Shown piece after piece: positions 9,009 to 22,932 of a DNA stretch of 22,932 bases (positions are counted from its first letter, which is position 1; each line of letters starts with the position of its first letter). The stretch covers positions 1 to 22,932 of IMG/VR virus record IMGVR_UViG_2690316152_000015. The stretch is one strand, 5' to 3'. This stretch comes from a virus (taxonomy: Duplodnaviria; Heunggongvirae; Uroviricota; Caudoviricetes). Position numbers and translations under genes: made by a program. Under the pieces are notes generated by a model. It saw only the letters and a list, made by a program, of their open reading frames with translations, ran no database searches and was not told the DNA's origin.

Positions 9009-9410
9009 TTAAAAACGCGCTAGATAAGAAAATTTAAGGCTAAGTGTCCCAACGATACCCCCATCACTAGAATCATCGTCATAATCGGTATTAGAAGCTA
9101 CTGGAGTGATATCTGAAATAGAGAAGCCCAAATCTTTAAAACGTGGGTTATCCGGCTGAATCTGGATTATCTGGCAAATACCCTCATGAATTTTGGTTTC
9201 ATGAATCTGAGAATATAATTGCATTTCGATAACGCATTCAGCTTGCATTGCATTACCGCCACGAACACGCGTATAAGTTTCATTCATGCCAGTAATCCAA
9301 CAAACCACGTCATCACTAAAGCCTTGCTGAGTTTGTTCTACGTTTAAAGCCAGACCTAAATCTTGTTCGATAATATCTTGCAAGGCGCGTTTGATTTTCA
9401 GTCTCGGCAT
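9009..9410 (-). CDS. Head-tail connector or neck protein
   Basis: Track ORF 9009-9479; likely start is the ATG at 9410 (MPRLKIKRAL...), 4 nt after the upstream stop, avoiding a 65-nt out-of-frame overlap; call by position between capsid and tail genes. Confidence 0.45.
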   Translation of the reverse strand: MPRLKIKRALQDIIEQDLGLALNVEQTQQGFSDDVVCWITGMNETYTRVRGGNAMQAECVIEMQLYSQIHETKIHEGICQIIQIQPDNPRFKDLGFSISDITPVASNTDYDDDSSDGGIVGTLSLKFSYLARF

Positions 9411-9414
9411 ATTA

Positions 9415-9705
9415 TTAACGGTAGCGAGCATGTGTACCCCCTGCCAGAGTAATAAAGCAATCAGTGGTATTATCACCATTGCGCTTAATATATTGAACTT
9501 TGAAACGCTGGTTTTCTACTGTGACAATATCACCTTGCTTTAAGTCTCCCTCACGACAGAATAGAAATTCTGTTTCTGTCATTACCCCTTGTTCGTCGGT
9601 AGTAGTAATTTCATGATAAGCACGAATTGATTTACCACCTTCCACCGAAAATACAGGAGCACTCTTAAACATTCTTGATAATTGTGATTCTGATAATTTG
9701 AACAT
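9415..9705 (-). CDS. Head-tail adaptor or head completion protein
   Basis: 96-aa ORF with strong Shine-Dalgarno (AAAGGGGG), first gene after the capsid gene; call by synteny. Confidence 0.45.
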   Translation of the reverse strand: MFKLSESQLSRMFKSAPVFSVEGGKSIRAYHEITTTDEQGVMTETEFLFCREGDLKQGDIVTVENQRFKVQYIKRNGDNTTDCFITLAGGTHARYR

Positions 9706-14043: not shown

Positions 14044-15948
14044 TTAGAACGATGTTACCCAGCTACGGCCTCTATTTGGACGTCTGGCGATGTTTTGACG
14101 TTGTGGTCGTGTGATTGGCTTACTTTCTTCTATTTGCTCGTCAGATTGCGTTTCAGGAGCTTTTACGGGTTCTTCTGGTTCGCGGTTCAAACTATCTTTG
14201 ATGGCTTCCAGTTTTTCCCATGACATTTTATTAAGCACATGACGATAACTAGCCACGGCATATGTAAGACAGTCCAATCCCTCGTTACGTTGCTGTCCAA
14301 CTTTTACCCAACGTGTCGTATTACCCTGCCGTTTCAACTGTTCAGATAACAATTGTTCGCAGTAGTCATCAGGAACGTCACCAATCTGGAAGACAGTATG
14401 CGGATCGCTGTCTCTCAAGTTCCGGTTAATCATTTCACGGATCATCGTCTTAAGATTGTTTACGCCCAGAATTTTAAGGGTAAAACCGCCCGTTCTTGTG
14501 TCCTTGACCGGAAGGATTGGAGCATCAACATTGCTTGCACCCTTAATGGCGCATAGGTTTTGCCACCTAGTGCAGAAGCGATAGATCACGTTTGTAGCTC
14601 GTCCGTTCGATGAGTCCACGAAAGCAGATAGCATCGGGATTCGTTGACCGGATCGGGTATAGAATTTAGCTTTCAGGAAGTTGTAAAGCTGGTCATATGC
14701 TGGTGATTCGTGGCGTTCGCAGTTCACATCATAGAATGATCGGTGATCAACTACGCATATCCCCTTACGAGAGATACCCAGCAAGGTAGATTCAAGACGG
14801 TCTTTTTGCTGGTCAACACCACTAACCAGAGCAAGTACATCATCAGGAATATTGTCTAGACTAATATCAGTTTTCAGCGTTTCCAGTTCGTCGGCTGTGC
14901 GGTCTTCGTTAAGATCATCGAAGGTTTCACCGAGGACTGTATTGTAGAACGTTGCCAGTGACATATTCGCGTAGCTATCAGCAAAGTCCACCACACACGC
15001 ACGGATAGAACTAAACGGAGACATAAGGCGGTTAGCATGAAAACCGATTACTTCCGCGTTTGGTTCGGTTGCTACCCATTCACCTTGAGCAACAGCACGT
15101 AGGCGAGCCCCTTCTGTCCAATCGGTTTCACATGACGGGCAACGGTAAACGGCTGTGTCAGGATTCGGCAGTGATTTACCATTGATTACATGCCAATCAA
15201 AGAAAACTCTACTCCATTCCATTACGTGTTTGTGTCCGCAATGCTGGCAAGGAACATAGTATTTCCTCTTATCCGAGAGTTCCCATTGTTGGTTTATCGC
15301 CCCATCACGAGCGGTTGGAGTGGAAGCAATTATGATCCTTGCGTCATCCCCGAAAGTGGTTGCGCGTTGTTCCGCTAGTTGGATCGGGTTCCCTTCGTCT
15401 GACTCATCAGCCGCATCAACTTCATCAAGAATAATCAAAGGGAGTGTTTTACCGCGAAGATGTGACGGACTATTCAACGACATGAAATACATGAATGATC
15501 CGTTACGAAGCTGAATAATCGATGAGTTGTTAACGGCATTGCGATCTGACTTGTCGGTGATCATCGCCTTTAATTCTGGGGTTGCCTCTAATACTGGCTT
15601 CACCTTACCCGCAATCCATGAGTTCAATTCTCGAACGTTTGCTTGCAAAACACCGATGTTAGTAGGGTTGCTGGCGATCCTGTGAAAGATAATACCGTTT
15701 AGCACAAGAGTTTTACCCAACTGCGCCGAGCACTTTAGAACAATTTTTCGCCTATCTTCGGTGATCGCGTCCATCATTCCACGTTGGAAGGGATGCAATT
15801 TAATTAGCGATCCGGCTTTAACACCATCGGTAGCAACTACATTAGCCTCTACCCATTCGCTAGGTTTCATGGCTTTAGGTGGGCGAATTGCCGCAGAGAT
15901 ATTTTTAAGAATCTTTTTTAATTTGGCCTTATTAGAAATCAGTTTCAT
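14044..15948 (-). CDS. terL: Terminase large subunit, GpA (lambda A)-like
   Basis: 634-aa ORF; deviant Walker A (CSAQLGKT), Walker B (LIILDEVD), zinc-finger-like CxxC pairs and C-terminal nuclease region as in lambda gpA; first gene of the minus-strand late operon. Confidence 0.9.
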   Translation of the reverse strand: MKLISNKAKLKKILKNISAAIRPPKAMKPSEWVEANVVATDGVKAGSLIKLHPFQRGMMDAITEDRRKIVLKCSAQLGKTLVLNGIIFHRIASNPTNIGVLQANVRELNSWIAGKVKPVLEATPELKAMITDKSDRNAVNNSSIIQLRNGSFMYFMSLNSPSHLRGKTLPLIILDEVDAADESDEGNPIQLAEQRATTFGDDARIIIASTPTARDGAINQQWELSDKRKYYVPCQHCGHKHVMEWSRVFFDWHVINGKSLPNPDTAVYRCPSCETDWTEGARLRAVAQGEWVATEPNAEVIGFHANRLMSPFSSIRACVVDFADSYANMSLATFYNTVLGETFDDLNEDRTADELETLKTDISLDNIPDDVLALVSGVDQQKDRLESTLLGISRKGICVVDHRSFYDVNCERHESPAYDQLYNFLKAKFYTRSGQRIPMLSAFVDSSNGRATNVIYRFCTRWQNLCAIKGASNVDAPILPVKDTRTGGFTLKILGVNNLKTMIREMINRNLRDSDPHTVFQIGDVPDDYCEQLLSEQLKRQGNTTRWVKVGQQRNEGLDCLTYAVASYRHVLNKMSWEKLEAIKDSLNREPEEPVKAPETQSDEQIEESKPITRPQRQNIARRPNRGRSWVTSF

Positions 15949-16035
15949 GTAATTACCCTCATTACGAAATATGAAGGTATTTATTAAGTTGTTGATTTTT
16001 TGATAAATACGGGTATTAAGATTTAAGGGGGTTGT

Positions 16036-16641
16036 ATGCTAATTAATCAGCAACAAAGAGATGAATTAGAATTAGCCTTTTCTTGTTGTACCGATCATGA
16101 ATATCGTTTACCAGTTAAACACAAGCATTTAAAAACAGATATAACCACTTCTGGCTTTAGTCGTGAGGACGCGAAAGAGATTTTAATAGAATTGTACCGC
16201 GATAATGGATATAGAGATCTTCACAACTTCTTTAGAAAGCATCGCACATCACATACAGAGTTTCAGAGAGTCCGAGAATGGTTTGATTTTGACATTAAAC
16301 GGTTCTATCGAGTAGATGGAGGCCAGATCTATAGATTGCAGTGGAAGCCGATCAGAGAAGTGTTGAAACAGACAAGGGATAATATGGCTATTACAATGCC
16401 ACGTAACATAGCTTTTAAGAAAGGATATGGTGATACAAGGGAACTATTCGTTGAACTCGCTAACGTGAAGTACAGCCACTATTACAACGATCCTAAATCC
16501 TTCTTTGAAGTGCTTCGCAAGGTTGATATAAGTCGGGGTACATATTATTCACGGTTGAAGAAGTACGGGATTAAGGTTGAGTTCTTTATGAGTATTGACG
16601 ATGGAGAACTTTTTCCTATAAAATCTAAGTCCTCTAAATAA
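16036..16641 (+). CDS. Hypothetical protein with C-terminal HTH-like segment; low GC, rare codons (moron-like)
   Basis: 201-aa ORF with Shine-Dalgarno AAGGGGG; rich in AGA, ATA, TTA codons unlike neighbours; C-terminal DISRGTYYSRLKKYGIKV resembles the HTH of the two small proteins at 16671-16904 and 20012-20191. Confidence 0.55.
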   Translation: MLINQQQRDELELAFSCCTDHEYRLPVKHKHLKTDITTSGFSREDAKEILIELYRDNGYRDLHNFFRKHRTSHTEFQRVREWFDFDIKRFYRVDGGQIYRLQWKPIREVLKQTRDNMAITMPRNIAFKKGYGDTRELFVELANVKYSHYYNDPKSFFEVLRKVDISRGTYYSRLKKYGIKVEFFMSIDDGELFPIKSKSSK

Positions 16642-16670
16642 AGGTGAACATTCACTTTAATTTGGAGAAA

Positions 16671-16904
16671 ATGACTATGACTACTAAAGCTACTCGCGGT
16701 CGCCCTGCCCGTTTTAACGCTGAACAGATGGCTGATATTGCCTACGCTTACTATACAGCGGATCGTGGTAAGGAAGCGAAAGAACAGATTCTTAGTGAAC
16801 ATGGGATCTCAATCGCCCAATTCTATAAGAATATGAAGAAGTTAGACATTAAATTCTATGTTCAGATCGGTGATGGTCAGATCGTAGAAGCAACAGGTTT
16901 TTGA
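16671..16904 (+). CDS. Small HTH DNA-binding protein (small-terminase or transposase-type HTH)
   Basis: Likely start is the ATG at 16671 (GGAG 5 nt upstream) rather than the track GTG at 16644; motif GRPARF...ILSEHGISIAQFYKNMKK follows the GRP..F...G.S..T.YRWL pattern of Sf6-type TerS and IS3 OrfA HTH domains. Confidence 0.55.
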   Translation: MTMTTKATRGRPARFNAEQMADIAYAYYTADRGKEAKEQILSEHGISIAQFYKNMKKLDIKFYVQIGDGQIVEATGF

Positions 16905-16912
16905 TTCTCTTT

Positions 16913-16938
16913 GCCACTCTTCGGAGTGGCTTTTTTAT
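16913..16938 (+). terminator. Intrinsic terminator for the plus-strand HTH genes
   Basis: GCCACUC-UUCG-GAGUGGC (7-bp stem, UUCG tetraloop) followed by U6. Confidence 0.75.
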
Positions 16939-16949
16939 ACCTACAGAAA

Positions 16950-16978
16950 ACAAAAAAGCCCCTGAAATTCAGGGGCAA
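16950..16978 (-). terminator. Intrinsic terminator for the Rha-family gene (convergent partner)
   Basis: Hairpin GCCCCUGAA/UUCAGGGGC preceded by A6 on the plus strand, giving a U-tract on the minus strand. Confidence 0.7.
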
Positions 16979-16984
16979 AAATTA

Positions 16985-17800
16985 TTACAGTCCAAAGACT
17001 TCCAGAGAGCCAGCATTCTGGCGGATACGTTCAGCAGCTTTATTTTGAATCAGAATAGTGTTGTTCGGTTTAGGCAGATTCAGAGTTGCTTTCTGTTCTT
17101 CTTCCAGAACACCCAATTCAACCAGCACCGGAAGCACATCAACAGTAAACTCAAGCTGGTAATGAGCATTCATGCGGCAGAAAGACAGAGAAGAATCATT
17201 AGCAACATACCCACACGGCTTGTTATTTTCATCATAGACGCGCTCAATATATCCAGCAGTACGCAAGGCCGTCAGTGCTTCTTTAACCTTCGTAGCGCCC
17301 TTTTTAGCGCCTAACAGACGCGTCATTGAATGGCTATCTACAGACTTACGAACATGAAGTTCAATCAGCTTTTTATTTTCGCGAGTTTTCTTTAACGCCA
17401 GTTCGATCCAGTCGGTTTCTTCAAAGTCTGCATACGGGTTAACGGCTAAACGTTCCTGACGCAGTTTTTCATTTTCTTCTTTCAGTCGTTTCCATTCCTG
17501 AATAACAACCAGACGACGATTAACATCGTAACCAGTGACAAGAGTCAGCGTCATTTCTTCGTCTAAGTGATATTCGGTTTGTTCACGTCCACACTGGTCA
17601 AGATAGGTGCGCTCAAAACTGAGCACATCTAATTCCAGAGCATCGAGCATGGATTTAATATCACGTTTAACGTTTTTGTGTTCTTTTCCGGTAAATTCAG
17701 CGATCTGACGGGAAGACATGGTCAGCGGTTTGGTGTTATCAACAACCAGAGACACGGAAGCAGTTTTAACAGCAGTATTCATAACAGTAACAGTATTCAT
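16985..17800 (-). CDS. Rha-family phage regulatory protein or antirepressor
   Basis: 271-aa ORF; N-terminal SSRQIAEFTGKEHKNVKRDI matches the Rha-domain signature as I remember it; C-terminal region resembles antirepressor C-terminal domains. Confidence 0.75.
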   Translation of the reverse strand: MNTVTVMNTAVKTASVSLVVDNTKPLTMSSRQIAEFTGKEHKNVKRDIKSMLDALELDVLSFERTYLDQCGREQTEYHLDEEMTLTLVTGYDVNRRLVVIQEWKRLKEENEKLRQERLAVNPYADFEETDWIELALKKTRENKKLIELHVRKSVDSHSMTRLLGAKKGATKVKEALTALRTAGYIERVYDENNKPCGYVANDSSLSFCRMNAHYQLEFTVDVLPVLVELGVLEEEQKATLNLPKPNNTILIQNKAAERIRQNAGSLEVFGL

Positions 17801-17886
17801 AGTATTAATTCCCCTTAAACGGTTTAGTGATTTGGTCCTCCTAGTTCCGGCATCTCAACCGGAACAATTTTATTTATAAGAAGTTT

Positions 17887-18039
17887 TTATCTCATCTTAG
17901 ATTCGGCAAGACAGCGATCAATTTCTTCTTGAATGAGGCGTTTGCGCTCGTGGAAATCAACCATTGAGAAATTCAGGTTAGGTGTCCACGGTTTGCGGTT
18001 CGGGTTTTTACGTCCATCAATTTTCTTGGTAGTGTTCAT
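17887..18039 (-). CDS. Small basic protein (50 aa), not in the supplied ORF track
   Basis: ATG at 18039 preceded by AAGAGGATG-type Shine-Dalgarno; MNTTKKIDGRKNPNRKPWTPNLNFSMVDFHERKRLIQEEIDRCLAESKMR; lies between the promoter at 18098-18126 and the Rha gene. Confidence 0.4.
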   Translation of the reverse strand: MNTTKKIDGRKNPNRKPWTPNLNFSMVDFHERKRLIQEEIDRCLAESKMR

Positions 18040-18097
18040 AATTAACATCCTCTTTACAAATCTAGGTCAAATCGGTTCAAAGTTGTCAAGTGCGACA

Positions 18098-18126
18098 ATC
18101 ATAAAAAAGCCAGAAAAATTTGTCAA
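18098..18126 (-). promoter_or_regulatory. Sigma70-type promoter directed toward the Rha gene, with overlapping palindromic operator
   Basis: On the minus strand TTGACA (18126-18121), 17-nt spacer, TATGAT (18103-18098); the -35 is one half of the inverted repeat TTGTCAA-N6-TTGACAA (18120-18139); further TTGACA-like hexamers at 18065-18157. Confidence 0.5.
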
Positions 18127-18161
18127 CACCCCTTGACAAGATGCCAAAGGGTTGACCTAAC

Positions 18162-18629
18162 TTACAGCATATCTAAGCCTTCATCATAGCCATAGAAGCC
18201 ATTCTGAGAAGAAAAAGCGATTGGTGCATAGTCATCGTCATCTTCGTCTTGTTCGTCTTCTTCTGGGGCTTCCTGAGCGTTTTCTTTACCGTAGTTAAAC
18301 ATTGCTTCGTCCAGTTCACGAAGAGTCAAGAAGCTACCCAGATCAATGTCACCGGAACGGACTTCAAACGGCAGATCATCACGAACAATAATTGCTGGTA
18401 GATTCTGGTACTTTAAGCGGTCTTCATCGGTGAAGCAGTTAACAACGATGGTCGGCTTCTTATTACGGAAAAACGCATACCATGCACTAGAGAAATGGGA
18501 TTCATCAGAGTTGAAAAGAATGTTGTAACGACGTTCAACAAAGATTTTCATTAACTTGTCATTGTGGAAGCTATCAGCATCAAAACCTAACAGGATGAAA
18601 GGAGTAGTGGTAGTCATTTTATGGTTCAT
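18162..18629 (-). CDS. Hypothetical acidic protein
   Basis: 155-aa ORF with AGAGGA Shine-Dalgarno; C-terminal third strongly acidic (EEDEQDEDDDDY); no recognisable catalytic motif. Confidence 0.55.
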   Translation of the reverse strand: MNHKMTTTTPFILLGFDADSFHNDKLMKIFVERRYNILFNSDESHFSSAWYAFFRNKKPTIVVNCFTDEDRLKYQNLPAIIVRDDLPFEVRSGDIDLGSFLTLRELDEAMFNYGKENAQEAPEEDEQDEDDDDYAPIAFSSQNGFYGYDEGLDML

Positions 18630-18835
18630 AGTGGAAATCCTCTAAAAGAAAGTGAATCAAGTAAGTACACTATTATTTATAACGAGAAAATTTTATCTCT
18701 TTTAGAAGGTGATTGTATTCAGTCGGGCTAAAGCCCTCCTTCATAGATTGTCTAAAAGTACATCAAACGTGGACCCTTCATTATGTAAATTATAGATCAT
18801 ACTCGTTTGAAGAAATAATAATCAGAAAGCAATAT

Positions 18836-18872
18836 AGCAACCGAAGGTTGCAATCCCGAAGGGATACCAATA
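18836..18872 (-). other. Two tandem UUCG-tetraloop hairpins in the minus-strand leader
   Basis: Minus-strand RNA UCCC-UUCG-GGGA and GCAACC-UUCG-GGUUGC, adjacent; upstream of the acidic-protein gene. Confidence 0.4.
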
Positions 18873-18889
18873 CCTTTCATGATCATTAA

Positions 18890-19135
18890 AGTGATCTAGA
18901 ATCATCTAGTAACCAGTTAACTACTATTATCTTCAAAGTGATTATTACTATCTTTCTAGAATCAGTTAGTAACTAGTATTAAATCCCTTTCGAGAAAATC
19001 CTTTCAGAAGTGATTCTCGATGCCACGCAGTGGCGTCGCAGACGTTTGAGAGTGAGCGAAGCGAGCAAGCAAACTAGTTAATTCCTTCTAAGACCATCTA
19101 GTATCATCTAGTTTAAATTAGTTGTTACTAGAAGC
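18890..19135. repeat. CTAG-rich direct and inverted repeats (candidate operator array)
   Basis: Nine CTAG tetramers in about 240 bp; repeated CTAGAATCA[TG][CT]TAGTAAC[CT]AGT at about 18896 and 18957, related CATCTAGT copies near 19096-19115; internal palindromes AGTTAACT and ACTAGT. Confidence 0.5.
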
Positions 19136-19261
19136 AATTGGTTGGCGCTTCGCGCAGTCGGGCTACGCCCTCCTAATATCTTTTTGGTTATTTGTTGTTT
19201 TTAGTTTTACACATGAGCGTAGCGAATGTGTTTATATAATATCTATGTACGCCGAATCCCC

Positions 19262-19447
19262 GCTTTTGCCCCTCACTAAGTTAATGTTTTATAAAGAGTT
19301 TTTCTCACCATTCCTTTTCGGGGGCAAATTTCAGGGGCAAAAATTAGATTTTCAGGGGCAATTATTGACATTTCAGGGGCAAAAATGGGATAGTGGAATC
19401 TTGGGGATTTTGTTCGGGGGCAAAAATTCAAAATTTCAGGGGCAATT
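19262..19447. repeat. Iteron-like array: six direct and one inverted copy of TTYCRGGGGCAA(A) with 21-bp periodicity
   Basis: GGGGCAA cores at 19321, 19334, 19355, 19376, 19417, 19439 (spacings 13, 21, 21, 41, 22) plus inverted copy at 19266-19272; followed by perfect palindrome CTATCAAA-TAT-TTTGATAG (19449-19467) and an AT-rich tract. Confidence 0.6.
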
Positions 19448-19641
19448 TCTATCAAATATTTTGATAGAAAATTCTTGTATATTATTTAACCAAAAAATCA
19501 CCAAAAATCGCTGCAACTTAATGATTTAAAAGAAATTTTCACTTACAAACGCAGTCATAATAGGTTATAAAGGTTGATAATCGTTATTCGCCATTTTCAA
19601 GCAAAATTTTTGATAGTCTTTTCTCGCTTAGATCAAGGGTA

Positions 19642-19670
19642 TTGACAACTGTCAAGAACTATTTTATACT
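19642..19670 (+). promoter_or_regulatory. Near-consensus sigma70 promoter with palindromic operator over the -35
   Basis: TTGACA (19642-19647), 17-nt spacer, TATACT (19665-19670); the -35 lies in the inverted repeat TTGACA-AC-TGTCAA. Confidence 0.65.
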
Positions 19671-19676
19671 TTTTCT

Positions 19677-19834
19677 CGTTGGTGGGGGTTGAAATTTTCT
19701 AAACAGTCCCCATATAGATGATAAGCAAGAATTTCCGCGTTATAAATACATGTGTGAAATGATTGTTCACTTCTGAAAATCCCCTGATTCACTGTTAATT
19801 CATACAGCACTGGTTAGATATACAGTGCTTTTTC
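19677..19834 (+). ncRNA. Candidate short transcript or attenuated leader from the promoter at 19642
   Basis: Predicted start about 19677; intrinsic terminator AGCACUG-10 nt loop-CAGUGCU followed by U5 at 19806-19834; duplicated GATATACAGTG and TTATAAATACA[AT]GTG motifs in the leader; the first downstream gene starts at 20012. Confidence 0.3.
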
Positions 19835-20011
19835 GGTTGAATAATGTACGAATTGATTAATTATTAATCTTCTCTTTAGCAATTCGTGCTCCCACTGATC
19901 GGATATACAGTGGTTTTACAGGGTTTTCTGAAAATCATTTTATAAATACAAGTGTTCAGAGCGAAAAGCTCTTTTTTAAGATTTTTTAAACCTAACAATA
20001 GGGGATTAAAA

Positions 20012-20191
20012 ATGGCTAAACCTGTACGATTCACACGAGAGGTATTGCTTCCGATTGCTAAACGTTATTTTGAAGCGATGCAGGGTGACAAGCTGGCGGT
20101 TTTGAAGGAAGAAGGAATTGATCCTTCTGATTTTAGAAAACTGCTAAAACGATATGACATTAAAGTGAAGATTGAAGCTACCGTTTGGTAA
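20012..20191 (+). CDS. Small HTH DNA-binding protein, paralog of 16671-16904
   Basis: Likely start ATG at 20012 (AGGGGA Shine-Dalgarno) rather than the track GTG at 19952; KPVRF...VLKEEGIDPSDFRKLLKRYDIKV aligns with the 16671-16904 product at about one third identity by eye. Confidence 0.55.
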   Translation: MAKPVRFTREVLLPIAKRYFEAMQGDKLAVLKEEGIDPSDFRKLLKRYDIKVKIEATVW

Positions 20192-20224
20192 TAACCTTTC
20201 ACTGAGAATTATATGATGGCTTTA

Positions 20225-20262
20225 AAAATAAAAAAGCCCCCTTGCGGCAACAAGGAGGCTTT
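20225..20262. terminator. Stem-loop flanked by A-run and T-run (possibly bidirectional terminator)
   Basis: AAAAAA-GCCCCCTTG-CGGCAA-CAAGGAGGC-TTT; 8 of 9 stem positions pair. Confidence 0.45.
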
Positions 20263-20305
20263 CAACATGACACATTAACTAACAAGAGTATTCAGGAGTA
20301 TTTAT

Positions 20306-21265
20306 ATGTTATTTTCCGCTAACTTTTTCACTAACGAAGTAACCAACGCTAAAGCAGTTATCAAATTTGGCACCGAAGCAAACAAGAAGATTCAGCCGAA
20401 AGTTGTTGCTCATGTTTCCTTTGCGCAGCAGAAATCCGCTTTCGCTGGCTTTAAAGCACATCGTGAAGCACTGATCGCGGCTGGCTTTGGTGTTGACGGT
20501 AAACTGCCTAACGGCGTTCGTAAAGCAATCGACCGCGTTAAACCTGCTAAAGACGTTGCAGTAGACCACATCGTTACTTTCACCGTTAAGAACTCTTCTG
20601 AACTGTTCCACCTGGTGATTGCTGGTGATACTGCTATCGTTTCCGCTCCTAACATGGATTTTCAGGATACCGCTGATTGTCAAATCACCTTCGGTCGTCG
20701 TAAAGAAGTTACTGGAAAAGCTAAACTGAACTTCACCAAATCCGGCAATACTTACTTTGCTGTATTCTTTAACAGCCATGCTACCGAGAAAGAAGTTGTA
20801 GAACTGGTTGCATATGAAGGTGAAGAAAAAGCACGTATTGAATCCTGCGACGCTTTCGTAGAACTGGAAGCACAAGTTAAGGCGGTTGCTCCTGTTGTTG
20901 AAGATCGTCTGGCTGCACTGGAAGCAGAGATTGCAGAACTGAAAGCTGCACTGAAAGAAAAAGACCAGATCATCGAAGCCCAGAAAGCTGAGATTGAAGA
21001 ACTGAAAGCTAAAGAAGTTGCTCCAGTGGCAGTTGAAGCCGAACAGGAAGTTGAATCTAAAGACTTCTTTACTCAAGCGGTTGAAGCTAAAGACAAACAA
21101 GCTCTTTGGATTCTGCTTAACGAAAAACGCTCTGTGACCGACGTTGCAGAGTGGAACAAATATCTGGTTAAGAAAAACGGTACTTCTGTTCAATTCATCG
21201 ATTTAATGACTGTTCAAGTTTTTGATGCGTTCGAAAATGTGTTCGACGTTCGCAAAGCAGCTTAA
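20306..21265 (+). CDS. Hypothetical protein with central coiled coil; codon usage of a highly expressed gene
   Basis: 319-aa ORF with CAGGAG Shine-Dalgarno; strong preference for CTG, CGT, GAA, AAA, GCT codons; heptad-like segment RLAALEAEIAELKAALKEKDQIIEAQKAEIEELKAKE; function not recognised. Confidence 0.6.
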   Translation: MLFSANFFTNEVTNAKAVIKFGTEANKKIQPKVVAHVSFAQQKSAFAGFKAHREALIAAGFGVDGKLPNGVRKAIDRVKPAKDVAVDHIVTFTVKNSSELFHLVIAGDTAIVSAPNMDFQDTADCQITFGRRKEVTGKAKLNFTKSGNTYFAVFFNSHATEKEVVELVAYEGEEKARIESCDAFVELEAQVKAVAPVVEDRLAALEAEIAELKAALKEKDQIIEAQKAEIEELKAKEVAPVAVEAEQEVESKDFFTQAVEAKDKQALWILLNEKRSVTDVAEWNKYLVKKNGTSVQFIDLMTVQVFDAFENVFDVRKAA

Positions 21266-21285
21266 TTTTAATTGGAGACCCTACT

Positions 21286-21657
21286 ATGGCAACTTTAAAC
21301 GAAAAAGCATTGTCACGTAAAACTCTGAAAGAGAAAAACATGATTCTTTCTGAAACGCTAAAACAGACTAATGCTGAGTGTGAGTTCTTGACCATTAAAC
21401 TTTCACTTAAAGAGAAAGAATGTAAGGAACTAATTGAAATGAATCGTTCTCTTTTGGAAAAGATGGAACGGATTGAATCCTTCTATGATAGTTACGTGAA
21501 ACTTAGTGAAGACTTTAAAGCCATGCAAGAAGACTACAAGAAATCGTTGAGGGAACAGATTAAACTGCATGAAGAATTGAAGGGCTATCGTGAAAAGGCT
21601 GTTAAAGAAAAGAAAGTACAGAAGATGAAAAACAAAGGATTGCGGCTTGTTGCATAA
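21286..21657 (+). CDS. Hypothetical coiled-coil protein
   Basis: 123-aa ORF with GGAG Shine-Dalgarno, 21 nt after the upstream stop; Lys/Glu-rich helical composition. Confidence 0.55.
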   Translation: MATLNEKALSRKTLKEKNMILSETLKQTNAECEFLTIKLSLKEKECKELIEMNRSLLEKMERIESFYDSYVKLSEDFKAMQEDYKKSLREQIKLHEELKGYREKAVKEKKVQKMKNKGLRLVA

Positions 21658-21664
21658 TAAAAAA

Positions 21665-21692
21665 GGGAGTCCCATTTAAGAGACTCCCTTGA
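21665..21692. terminator. Stem-loop terminator at the end of the plus-strand gene pair
   Basis: GGGAGUC-10 nt loop-GACUCCC; A-run upstream gives a U-tract on the minus strand. Confidence 0.5.
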
Positions 21693-21761
21693 CTTAGGTT
21701 AAGGTTAGGTTTGCACAACAAGATGAGGTTTATAATGAACATGATGCTACATTATCTAGTA

Positions 21762-21795
21762 AAGCCAGAAAAATAACCGCCTCTTTCGAGGCGGG
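21762..21795 (-). terminator. Intrinsic terminator for the small-peptide transcription unit
   Basis: Minus-strand hairpin CCGCCUC-GAAAGA-GGCGG followed by UUAUUUUUCUGGCUUU. Confidence 0.5.
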
Positions 21796-21953
21796 AGGAT
21801 TAATACTCAATCTATACTTGTTATGTTTTTATGATGTATAGATCACTGACTATGAAAACACTGTACTGGAGTGTGTTTTATGGCTTTTAATCGGGAACTC
21901 TCTTTCAAAAGCTCCCTGTTAATAACCATGTAGGAGAAAGGCAGATTACAATA

Positions 21954-22127
21954 TTATTTAGTGTCTGATTTACAGCAGCAAAAAAGAATAAACAAAAAGA
22001 AGCATACCCAGCCGTAAGGCGTACCGATTAGAAATTTGAAAAACACCACCAGCGATATAAAAATTAATTTAACACCAGCGACGATAGTCAAAAACAGCAG
22101 AGTAGCGAAATAGACAAAAAGATCCAT
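21954..22127 (-). CDS. Small hydrophobic membrane peptide (57 aa), not in the supplied track
   Basis: ATG at 22127 preceded by AAGAGGATTATCT; MDLFVYFATLLFLTIVAGVKLIFISLVVFFKFLIGTPYGWVCFFLFILFCCCKSDTK; two predicted hydrophobic helices. Confidence 0.45.
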   Translation of the reverse strand: MDLFVYFATLLFLTIVAGVKLIFISLVVFFKFLIGTPYGWVCFFLFILFCCCKSDTK

Positions 22128-22180
22128 AGATAATCCTCTTTGAAAACGACCATCATCTATAGTTCAATTCATCGATTTAA

Positions 22181-22282
22181 TTAATGATACTTGAAAGCGT
22201 TACACACAGCAGAAATGCCAATATGTGCAAGTGAATATACGATAGTTAATCCTACAGCCAGATAAATCAAAAATTCAACCAT
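22181..22282 (-). CDS. Small hydrophobic peptide (33 aa), not in the supplied track
   Basis: ATG at 22282 preceded by GAGGATTTACCT; MVEFLIYLAVGLTIVYSLAHIGISAVCNAFKYH; same Shine-Dalgarno style as the 57-aa ORF. Confidence 0.35.
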   Translation of the reverse strand: MVEFLIYLAVGLTIVYSLAHIGISAVCNAFKYH

Positions 22283-22299
22283 AGGTAAATCCTCAAATA

Positions 22300-22331
22300 A
22301 GAAAAAGGTTAGCGGGGGGTGATTCCCCCCG
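22300..22331 (-). terminator. Intrinsic terminator downstream of the Nu1-like gene
   Basis: CGGGGGG-UGAUU-CCCCCCG hairpin followed on the minus strand by UAACCUUUUUC. Confidence 0.55.
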
Positions 22332-22380
22332 TAGACGTTGACCAACTCAACATCTTTCATACATTTATTTATAACGCGTT

Positions 22381-22932
22381 TTAAGACACATCAAATTCAT
22401 CGTCTTCTTCTGGTTCTTGTTCCGGTTCATCCATTAATGGTAATTCTTCTTCCTCGTCTTCTCCTAAATCCGCATTTTCGAACAAGTCCCCTACTTCGTT
22501 TAAACGACGCTCGATGATCTCCCTTAGCTTATTCTTCAATGTTTTCTGATCGGTGGCAGATTCGAGAATTTCTAAAGCGTCGATTGTGGCGATCTGCAAA
22601 ATAGTCTGTTTCACCTTTCCGCAATATTCCGCTAGTTCCTGTTCTACATAACCGACCGGAATCAGGAGATTCATCGCTTCCTGGTTCTCTCGTTCGGCTG
22701 CATCCGCGAGTGCTCTTTCCCGGCGTAATTTCTCGACATCTATTTGTTCTTTGATAGAAGTTTCTTTGAGCGGATTAATGATGTTCTTCAAGACCCATTC
22801 TGTCCCCTCTTTGGCTGGCACGCGTCGTGTATTGGTATTAAATGGCATTCCTCGTTCTTGCCATTTCTTAGCGGCGTTAATTGTATAGCCGTATAAGCGG
22901 GAAATTTCTGTAAGGGTTAATTCTTCTTTCAT
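22381..22932 (-). CDS. Nu1-like terminase small subunit (winged-HTH DNA-binding N-terminus); start coincides with the window edge
   Basis: N-terminus LTLTEISRLYGYTINAAKKWQERGMPF parallels lambda Nu1 (LADIFGASIRTIQNWQEQGMPV, from memory); shared EKLRRE segment; acidic C-terminal tail; located about 6.4 kb from the large terminase gene. Confidence 0.55.
   Translation of the reverse strand: MKEELTLTEISRLYGYTINAAKKWQERGMPFNTNTRRVPAKEGTEWVLKNIINPLKETSIKEQIDVEKLRRERALADAAERENQEAMNLLIPVGYVEQELAEYCGKVKQTILQIATIDALEILESATDQKTLKNKLREIIERRLNEVGDLFENADLGEDEEEELPLMDEPEQEPEEDDEFDVS

Follow-up and report, generated by a model that had tools for sequence, protein, structure and literature searches.

A repeat array and a covarying coiled-coil protein as a candidate replication origin and initiator in a prophage family of Enterobacterales

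RESULTS

The 22,932-nucleotide stretch of DNA analyzed in this study (IMG/VR virus record IMGVR_UViG_2690316152_000015, positions 1 to 22,932; here called the window) is part of an Escherichia coli prophage that occupies approximately 35 kb in a complete genome, and it carries, within a noncoding gap of 1.38 kb (18630-20011), an array of six direct repeats (19316-19448, plus strand). The position and orientation of this array are conserved across the prophage family, with five different motifs at the same place, and the motif covaries with the N-terminal domain of a 319-amino-acid (aa) coiled-coil protein, the gene of which lies 0.9 kb downstream of the array (20306-21265, plus strand). We infer that this domain, of approximately 180 residues, is the sequence-specific binder of the array, and we put at about even the chance that the array and the 319-aa protein together constitute a vegetative replication origin with its initiator, an origin being favored over an operator array.

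The repeat array

With no more than one mismatch allowed, the motif TTYCRGGGGCAA matches the window seven times, compared with 0.28 matches expected, and none of 100 shuffles reached seven. Six of the matches are direct copies starting at 19316, 19329, 19350, 19371, 19412, and 19434 (units 19316-19330, 19329-19343, 19350-19364, 19371-19385, 19412-19426, and 19434-19448), with start-to-start distances of 13, 21, 21, 41, and 22 bp; Tandem Repeats Finder (TRF) reports a 21-bp period across 19328-19386, and the core of the unit that is shared family-wide is AGGGGCAAAAAT. Pattern search and direct reading recovered both the six direct copies and the single inverted copy listed in an initial annotation of this DNA, whose spacing of about two helical turns applies to four of the five intervals and fails for the remaining one. 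Each feature in that annotation lies where it was placed there. The inverted copy (TTTTGCCCCT, 19262-19273, minus strand, with the core TTGCCCC at 19266-19272) is degenerate, and in L001, L005, L010, L011, and L013 it is likewise degenerate or absent; it is not conserved as a member of the array and is probably dispensable and outside the system.

The seventh match (16967-16978) forms one arm of the terminator hairpin of the Rha gene (16958-16976), which is followed by a T-run on the minus strand. The initial annotation had counted it as a further copy of the motif, and it is indeed part of the terminator; since it does not follow the array type, remaining GGGGCAA in L160, the array and protein of which are of the GTGTAGG type, it falls outside the system. 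In L095, this terminator is replaced by an unrelated hairpin.

The number of repeats differs between close relatives. The array of the window is 65 bp (three copies) shorter than that of nine-copy relatives, near-identical relatives differ by array-region insertions or deletions of 13, 22, 30, and 65 bp, and L034, approximately 99 to 100% identical across the gap, nevertheless has a shorter array, a pattern that points to variation of the copy number through recombination between repeats. Two open reading frames (ORFs) overlapping the array, 19122-19529 on the plus strand and 19276-19455 on the minus strand, are not credible genes, because insertions or deletions there (13, 22, and 65 bp) are not multiples of three. 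A promoter-like pair within the array (TTGACA...GATAGT, 19365-19394) was rejected as well, its -35 element being TTGGCA in relatives, and the array of the window lies at least 190 bp from the nearest promoter-like site (-35) and 690 bp from the leftward gene. A literature search for the repeat motif returned irrelevant matches only, and a genome-wide scan for paired GGGGCAA yielded unrelated 11- or 21-bp tandem repeats from many phyla (L014 and L017-L030), with two to five copies each and in no case the multicopy array of this family; L014 is a perfect 21-bp tandem repeat.

Five repeat classes and their cognate protein domain

The five motifs found at the array position define the following classes: GGGGCAA (AGGGGCAAAAAT), with 6 to 9 direct copies in the window, L038, L054-L056, and L060; CGGACAA (TTTCACGGACAAAAA), with 7 exact-core copies and degenerate ones in L059; CTAGGGAT (GCTAGGGATG), with 13 exact and 3 degenerate copies, largely at 11-bp spacing, in L053; GTGTAGG (TAGTGTAGGT), with 8 copies in L058; and TATAGGAC (GTTATAGGACA), with 8 direct and 5 inverted copies in L057. 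Across the classes, the arrays of relatives comprise 7 to 16 copies spaced 11 to 23 bp apart, and every class has a core that is G-rich on the plus strand. The CGGACAA motif is related to GGGGCAA, and the CTAGGGAT, GTGTAGG, and TATAGGAC motifs share TAGG. The Proteus locus L053 has two 46-bp AT-rich spacers with AAAATCAT repeats, bordered by the repeat blocks.

The N-terminal 185 residues of the 319-aa protein follow this classification. Compared with the window, they are 52 to 97% identical in GGGGCAA loci (N-terminal domain of this class, 52 to 100%) and 37% identical in the CGGACAA locus, and they have no detectable similarity in loci with the other three motifs; the N-terminal domains of the CTAGGGAT, GTGTAGG, and TATAGGAC classes are distantly related to one another (26 to 29% identity, E values of 1e-5 to 1e-6). 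The Proteus protein resembles that of the window in the coiled coil and C-terminal part only (26% over residues 182-290). In L038, the repeat core is unchanged although the homologue of the 319-aa protein is only 46% identical.

The other proteins of the region do not follow the motif. The small terminase TerS is 75 to 78% identical in L059 and L058, which carry different motifs, versus 72 to 75% in comparably divergent GGGGCAA loci; the 201-aa protein is 57 to 71% identical in different-motif loci versus 47 to 54% in same-motif loci; the 155-aa (31 to 40%) and 59-aa (52 to 61%) proteins show no trend with the motif; and the identity of the large terminase TerL (54 to 99%) is independent of array type.

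As a prospective test, IMG/VR was scanned with the DNA pattern of the GTGTAGG repeats alone, which returned 11 E. coli loci of the family, and all 11 encode the L058-type N-terminal domain (77 to 80% identity). The same 11 loci are close to the window elsewhere (TerS, 93 to 98%; TerL, up to 99.5%; the 201-aa protein, 85 to 92%; the 155-aa protein, up to 92%). L038 and L059 share the hairpin segment to the left of the array (73% identity) and differ in both the array and the N-terminal domain (29%); the protein therefore tracks the repeats and not the hairpins. Because of the covariation across five classes, the 11-of-11 prediction, and the lack of covariation in the other proteins, we assign the role of cognate binder to the N-terminal domain of the 319-aa protein; the suggestion that this protein is the binding partner of the array is thus strongly supported by sequence covariation, and that of the 155-aa and small helix-turn-helix (HTH) proteins as binders is not borne out.

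The architecture of the 319-aa protein is in keeping with a DNA binder: a basic N-terminal domain (aa 1-180, nucleotides 20306-20845; isoelectric point [pI], 9.1) is joined through a coiled-coil stretch (aa 182-236) to a C-terminal part that is modular and acidic (pI 4.6). The pI of the N-terminal domain is approximately 9 to 9.8 in 9 of 10 family members, and that of the remainder is 4.1 to 4.6. The C-terminal modules are of two types, "WNKY...", usually followed by a small downstream gene, and an acidic "MLHDEMYGT" type. The protein matched no known family; neither sequence nor fold comparison revealed homology to the Rep_3/RepA, lambda O, DnaA-like, or primase-helicase families, and searches of phage and plasmid proteins with the 319-, 338-, and 350-aa proteins gave no matches. 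An exhaustive HMMER search with the N-terminal domain retrieved 11 proteins only, three large ones being low-complexity artifacts with HRM or BACON repeats, and a homologue search with the Proteus-type N-terminal domain retrieved nothing.

DNA flanking the array

The last repeat is abutted by the perfect palindrome CTATCAAA-TAT-TTTGATAG (19449-19467), to which a half-palindrome at 19598-19616 is related, and from there an AT-rich spacer of low stability (19468-19640; GC content, 0.32 to 0.34) extends to the rightward promoter as a candidate unwinding element. Both the palindrome and the AT-rich stretch had been described in the initial annotation and are real features: in duplex stability, the segment 19445-19545 ranks second lowest among the 100-bp windows of the 22.9 kb (-111 kcal/mol versus a mean of -133; standard deviation, 7). 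The palindrome is restricted to loci with one form of the right flank (variant A, palindrome plus AT-rich DNA); since this flank is common to GGGGCAA-type and GTGTAGG-type arrays, the palindrome does not belong specifically with the array binder. As an operator of the 59-aa protein, the palindrome found no clean support, L054 combining an 86% identical 59-aa protein with a degenerate palindrome only.

To the left, the gap begins with a conserved part (18630-19013, plus strand) that contains CCGAAGG mini-hairpins (18837-18851 and 18853-18865) and CTAG-rich repeats of 23 nucleotides. CTAG is a rare tetranucleotide in E. coli; it is strikingly frequent at 18895-19132, in the 23-nucleotide repeats TCTAGAATCATCTAGTAACCAGT, and in the same place the duplex stability of the window is at its lowest (18885-18985). 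Between the conserved part and the array lies a hairpin-rich segment (19014-19315, plus strand) with GNA-triloop hairpins at 19019-19037, 19145-19155, 19160-19170, and 19208-19230 and a long inverted repeat at 19050-19160. This segment is swapped along with the array in GTGTAGG-type E. coli phages, the exchanged DNA extending from approximately 19014 to the last repeat.

Mini-hairpins are concentrated near the array: 6 of the 15 stable GNA-triloop hairpins of the window fall within approximately 3% of its length, as do 6 of its 20 S-CGNAG-S' mini-hairpin motifs (P of approximately 2e-5). The motifs at 18837-19230 include GCAACC-GAA-GGTTGC, ATCCC-GAA-GGGAT, GCCAC-GCA-GTGGC, GCGAAGC, and GCGTAGC, together with GCGC-GAA-GCGC and GGGC-GTA-GCCC on the minus strand, and an 11-nucleotide element, GAGCG-N-AGCGA, occurs two to three times per locus. 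The hairpins left of the array show compensatory stem changes in relatives (three pairs in one, one pair in another) and an invariant U.G pair that is workable on the plus strand only. Such mini-hairpins have been reported for the G4/St-1 priming sites and for RSF1010 ssiA (PMC13037366).

On the right, transcription toward the 59-aa gene is predicted to start from a sigma-70-like promoter (TTGACA-17-TATACT, 19642-19670, plus strand; 11 of 12 matches) whose -35 element lies within the palindrome TTGACAACTGTCAA and whose equivalent is conserved in L038, L057, L059, and L095. It is followed by a leader of approximately 335 nucleotides (19677-20011, plus strand) with terminator-like hairpins at 19806-19833, 19892-19917, and 19958-19978 and with TTATAAATA-N3-GTGT boxes at 19740 and 19940; two of the three hairpins are near-duplicates, and at 18667-18692 a third box of this kind is directed toward the 155-aa gene. 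The promoter-leader unit (19642-20011) may serve attenuation, antitermination, or small-RNA control. Immediately before the 319-aa gene, a strong ribosome binding site and a three-codon mini-ORF (ATG ACA CAT TAA) are overlapped by a conserved GC-rich hairpin (20232-20278) that resembles a terminator on the minus strand, and L038 is arranged alike.

Two small proteins are encoded on either side of the 319-aa gene. The 59-aa protein (20012-20191, plus strand) has a resolvase-type HTH-like C terminus, with a weak HTH_7 match in its L057 counterpart, and tblastn cross-hits show that it is paralogous to the 86-aa protein and to each half of the 201-aa protein. The C-terminal module common to the 201-aa (two tandem copies) and 86-aa proteins, encoded within 16036-16904, and the 59-aa protein resembles a resolvase-type HTH and then a beta-hairpin, with the pattern G-I-S/D...F/Y-Y/R-K...K-K-x-D/G-I-K. 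Downstream of the 319-aa gene lies that of a 123-aa coiled-coil protein (21286-21657, plus strand); a small protein is usual at this place with the "WNKY..." C terminus, other relatives having a different gene or none, and we speculate that the 123-aa protein is a partner of the 319-aa protein.

The prophage family and its genomic setting

The prophage integrase is of the serine type. In the complete-genome copy, the prophage is flanked by two halves of hicB, and its end carries lysis genes and the gene of a 559-aa serine recombinase; in the strain of the window, a codB fragment (134 aa) adjoins the prophage end, and in another strain, ycdX is interrupted. TerL, of the gpA type, is encoded at 14044-15948 on the minus strand, followed on that strand by W-like, portal, protease-capsid fusion, and tail genes, while the Nu1-like TerS gene (22381-22932) lies 3 kb to the right of the array. 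The 6.4 kb between the two terminase genes, an unusual placement, holds all candidate early genes: those of the 155-aa protein, a 53-aa protein, and Rha on the minus strand and those of the 201-, 86-, 59-, 319-, and 123-aa proteins on the plus strand, with the gap separating the 155-aa and 59-aa genes. The gene order of the family is TerL, 201 aa, 86 aa, (Rha), 53 aa, 155 aa, a gap of 1.2 to 1.7 kb, 59 aa, approximately 320 aa, and TerS. The split of TerS and TerL by the early block (14044-22932 in the window) is kept in L031, L035, L038, and L053-L060, and relatives in E. coli, Salmonella, and Proteus share it.

Protein family searches recognized no replication or repressor family in the complete 35-kb prophage and no match that marks an initiator among the neighbors of the array, as the initial annotation had stated for the latter. 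Rfam, at gathering and permissive thresholds, matched nothing in the noncoding gap, and the Prokaryotic Genome Annotation Pipeline (PGAP) placed no annotation in the region of the gap in 57 of 58 genomes sampled.

In E. coli, the family is represented by the IMG/VR loci L001-L016 and L055 and by 58 of 5,426 complete genomes (approximately 1%), where its 63 occurrences all lie in chromosomes and none in a plasmid; further members come from Salmonella (L054 and L056-L060) and Proteus columbae (L053), and L038 is from one further assembly. No close relative was found among 50,697 deposited phage records or 72,556 plasmid records, and a DNA search of deposited phages with the noncoding region gave no match. 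We conclude that this is a previously uncharacterized family of temperate siphophages of Enterobacterales, of approximately 35 kb, with a large serine recombinase and a lambda-type gpA/Nu1 terminase.

Strain BS74R-D is a double lysogen (NZ_CP063332.1, 10.4-44 kb and 415.7-452 kb; L192 and L193, in ycdX and hicB). Its two prophages are 93 to 98% identical, each with a nine-copy GGGGCAA array, and encode the same 313-aa and 60-aa proteins; as a check on immunity, the pair is uninformative, the early regions being approximately 94% identical throughout.

A GC-rich, partly symmetric candidate cos site lies directly upstream of the TerS gene (L031, 12628-12860), as in lambda, and contig ends gave no clue to the location of cos. 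At the left end of the window, an IS3-family transposase ORF (1-888), whose frameshift pseudoknot of the ALIL type lies at 1-72, directly adjoins a tape-measure-like gene of 583 aa (891-2642), and the prophage of this strain may accordingly be truncated or disrupted. ARAGORN predicts a tRNA-Gln at 9154-9244 (plus strand) within a minus-strand ORF (9009-9479), probably a false positive.

DISCUSSION

The absence of any known replication gene from the complete prophage implies that origin and initiator must be among the elements without a known family, and the array with the 319-aa protein combines phased direct repeats with a neighboring protein of matched, presumably binding, specificity, as in iteron origins. 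The one-directional, helically phased units, the unstable flank, the AT-rich spacers bordered by repeat blocks in L053, the distance from promoters, the plastic copy number, and the cluster of mini-hairpins all suggest an origin. An unstable stretch that could act as the unwinding element is present in the window and in some relatives, and in the window the order of repeats and then an easily melted AT-rich stretch is as the initial annotation described.

The origin would then comprise the array, the easily melted AT-rich stretch, and the hairpin-rich segment to the left. After induction, the rightward promoter at 19642 would express the 59-, 319-, and 123-aa proteins; the 319-aa protein, oligomerized via its coiled coil, would coat the repeats largely on one helix face, as their spacing of 11, 13, or 21 to 23 bp permits, and the resulting strain would melt the adjoining AT-rich DNA. 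Host replication proteins would be recruited by the acidic C-terminal module, which is interchangeable and would act by itself or together with the small protein encoded downstream, and the GCGNAGC/CCGAAGG mini-hairpins could serve as priming or strand-initiation signals.

Several observations weigh against an origin: (i) the DnaA box TTATCCACA, searched with up to one mismatch, is absent from the gap (18630-20011); (ii) L038 is the only relative with perfect TTATCCACA boxes, three of them (9692, 9712, and 9851), and these lie away from the array; (iii) the AT-rich spacer is missing in relatives with the other form of the right flank (variant B), where strong consensus promoters directly follow the array; (iv) sigma-54-type promoters of some relatives are located just upstream of the sigma-70 promoter, at an enhancer-like distance from the array; (v) swift swapping of specificity between near-identical phages is also how immunity systems behave; (vi) the repressor of the phage has likewise not been recognized, so that the 319-aa protein could be the repressor; and (vii) sequence and fold searches recognized no initiator, helicase, or primase domain and no NTPase motif in the 319-aa protein. 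The L038 boxes are situated in an insertion of approximately 210 bp between the 60-aa and 305-aa genes, together with inverted repeats and AAAATCA repeats.

More tentatively, and with somewhat less confidence than in the origin itself, we raise the possibility that the 319-aa family represents a new class of initiator, in which two unrelated, interchangeable, beta-rich DNA-binding superfamilies would be joined to a common coiled coil and alternative, short C-terminal recruitment modules, acting on a DnaA-box-free origin of 11- to 13-bp iterons with mini-hairpin priming signals, in a phage that has no helicase, primase, or loader of known type and whose early region lies between the terminase genes.

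The strongest competitor, which we consider possible but clearly less probable than an origin, is a regulatory operator or enhancer on which the 319-aa protein polymerizes to control the divergent early promoters, as an autoregulator, a lysogeny or immunity repressor, or an upstream activator. Covariation indicates specific binding and not its effect; DNA-binding domains with coiled coils are common among regulators; and both the missing repressor and the exchange of specificity cassettes between near-identical phages, as in heteroimmune families, would be accounted for. In variant B relatives and L038, moreover, the array ends approximately 45 bp upstream of consensus sigma-70 promoters, and near-consensus sigma-54 promoters (AAGTTGGCACG-N4-TTGC(A/T)) are present 120 to 175 bp downstream of the array in L053 (12314), L054 (12686), L056 (13198), and L059 (12779). 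On the other hand, the repeats are asymmetric and, except in L057, of a single orientation, which is typical of iterons and unusual for operators, and no repeat of the window overlaps a promoter-like site. Sigma-54 activation requires an AAA+ domain, which the 319-aa protein lacks and which was found in no other early protein, and no AAA+ activator is encoded near the sigma-54 promoters; a scan for such promoters (TGGCAC-N5-TTGC), with the prpB promoter in L031 as a positive control, found none in the window or in any of the E. coli loci examined. Furthermore, a strong promoter and a leader rich in terminators precede the operon in which the 319-aa gene comes second, and this gene is not in a divergent maintenance unit.

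In variant B relatives (L001-L004, L006, L007, and others) and in L038 (9107-9123), two to three GTGTAGG units directly follow the GGGGCAA array, one of them inside the spacer of the consensus promoter; these units are probably the scar of recombination between phages of differing array types.

Alternatively, the array and hairpin segment could be transcribed as a structured plus-strand RNA (a primer or R-loop origin transcript or an antitermination or immunity RNA) that the 319-aa protein modulates, the G-rich repeats then acting as RNA or within an R-loop. GNA-triloop mini-hairpins are typical of single-stranded DNA and not of RNA (PMC13037366), which speaks against a transcript; the compensatory stem changes, the invariant U.G pair confined to the plus strand, the G-rich plus-strand cores of all five classes, and the downstream leader with its three terminator-like hairpins and internal repeats speak for it. 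We consider it unlikely, given that Rfam gave no match, that no convincing plus-strand promoter was found to the left of the hairpins, and that the freely varying number and spacing of the repeats fit protein sites better than a folded RNA.

A centromere-like site for partition or anchoring (parC/ParR or tubC/TubR), with the 319-aa protein as adaptor, is more improbable still. R1 parC consists of blocks of repeats, which the 11-bp direct-repeat blocks with spacers in L053 and L057 resemble, but no partition NTPase is encoded, the E. coli occurrences are without exception chromosomal, the plasmid collection holds no homologue, and the element, which encodes a large serine integrase, is inserted within codB, hicB, or ycdX. 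Finally, a packaging site (cosB- or pac-like) bound by the Nu1-like TerS, suggested by the location of the array between the TerS and TerL genes and by the repeated R sites that Nu1-type proteins bind, was rejected on covariation and is the least probable explanation of all, TerS being nearly unchanged in the GTGTAGG-type E. coli phages and no more divergent in Salmonella phages with CGGACAA or GTGTAGG arrays than in GGGGCAA loci, TerL identity being independent of the array, and the candidate cos lying directly upstream of the TerS gene.

The origin proposed here has its nearest parallels in lambda and in iteron plasmids. Lambda O combines an iteron-specific N terminus with a partner-specific C terminus, and lambda-type origins need no DnaA boxes. 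As at lambda ori, phased repeats lie beside an AT-rich region without DnaA boxes and near a strong rightward promoter, and as with O, the presumed initiator has a repeat-specific N terminus and a separate C-terminal partner module, its specificity types being exchanged among related phages. In lambda, however, the iterons are inverted-repeat units inside the O gene, whereas the units here are asymmetric, direct, and 0.9 kb upstream, with a promoter, a leader, and the small HTH gene separating them from the binder gene; the searches revealed no resemblance to O in sequence or fold and no recognizable P-like loader. The iteron plasmids (P1 oriR/RepA, F ori2/RepE, pSC101, R6K, and RK2) share direct repeats of approximately 21 to 22 bp, variable copy number, and an adjacent cognate protein that possibly autoregulates; the present system differs from them in having no DnaA boxes, a binder outside the Rep_3/winged-helix type, and a short unit (11 to 13 bp), sometimes in tandem at 11 or 13 bp, and in belonging to an integrated phage that is never a plasmid.

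Resemblances to other systems are more partial. Staphylococcal pathogenicity island (SaPI) and phage-inducible chromosomal island (PICI) origins have short iteron blocks flanking AT-rich DNA, as seen most clearly in L053 and L057, and an iteron-matched protein determinant that is swapped between relatives, but the Rep protein of SaPIs is a helicase, whereas an NTPase motif is missing from the 319-aa protein, and the element is a complete phage and not a satellite. The closest regulatory precedent is the Mu c repressor with O1-O3, where many short sites are spread over approximately 200 bp between divergent early units and the protein consists of an N-terminal DNA-binding domain, a coiled-coil (leucine-zipper) oligomerization region, and a C-terminal tail; the Mu sites overlap early promoters, which those of the window do not, Mu transposes, and no homology was found. 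RSF1010 oriV likewise places an iteron block and stable CCGAAGG/GCGNAGC hairpins on both strands within a few hundred base pairs (PMC13037366), although no RepB'-type primase or RepA helicase is encoded here and the role of the hairpins is putative.

To conclude, an iteron array with a cognate binder is a known theme, and what the present case adds is a new protein family and the unusual setting of the early region between the terminase subunits. None of the early proteins of this family has a recognized replication or repressor function, and the five pairs of motif and N-terminal domain provide a ready set of matched and mismatched combinations with which specificity-swap experiments are straightforward. 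Swapping specificities in this way would characterize a new DNA-binding domain together with its recognition code and would reveal whether a phage can initiate replication or keep lysogeny through a protein unlike known initiators or repressors, providing a tractable experimental entry to the early functions of a prophage family that is fairly common in enterobacteria. The module could also become a source of orthogonal pairs (origin/initiator or operator/regulator) for use in these bacteria.

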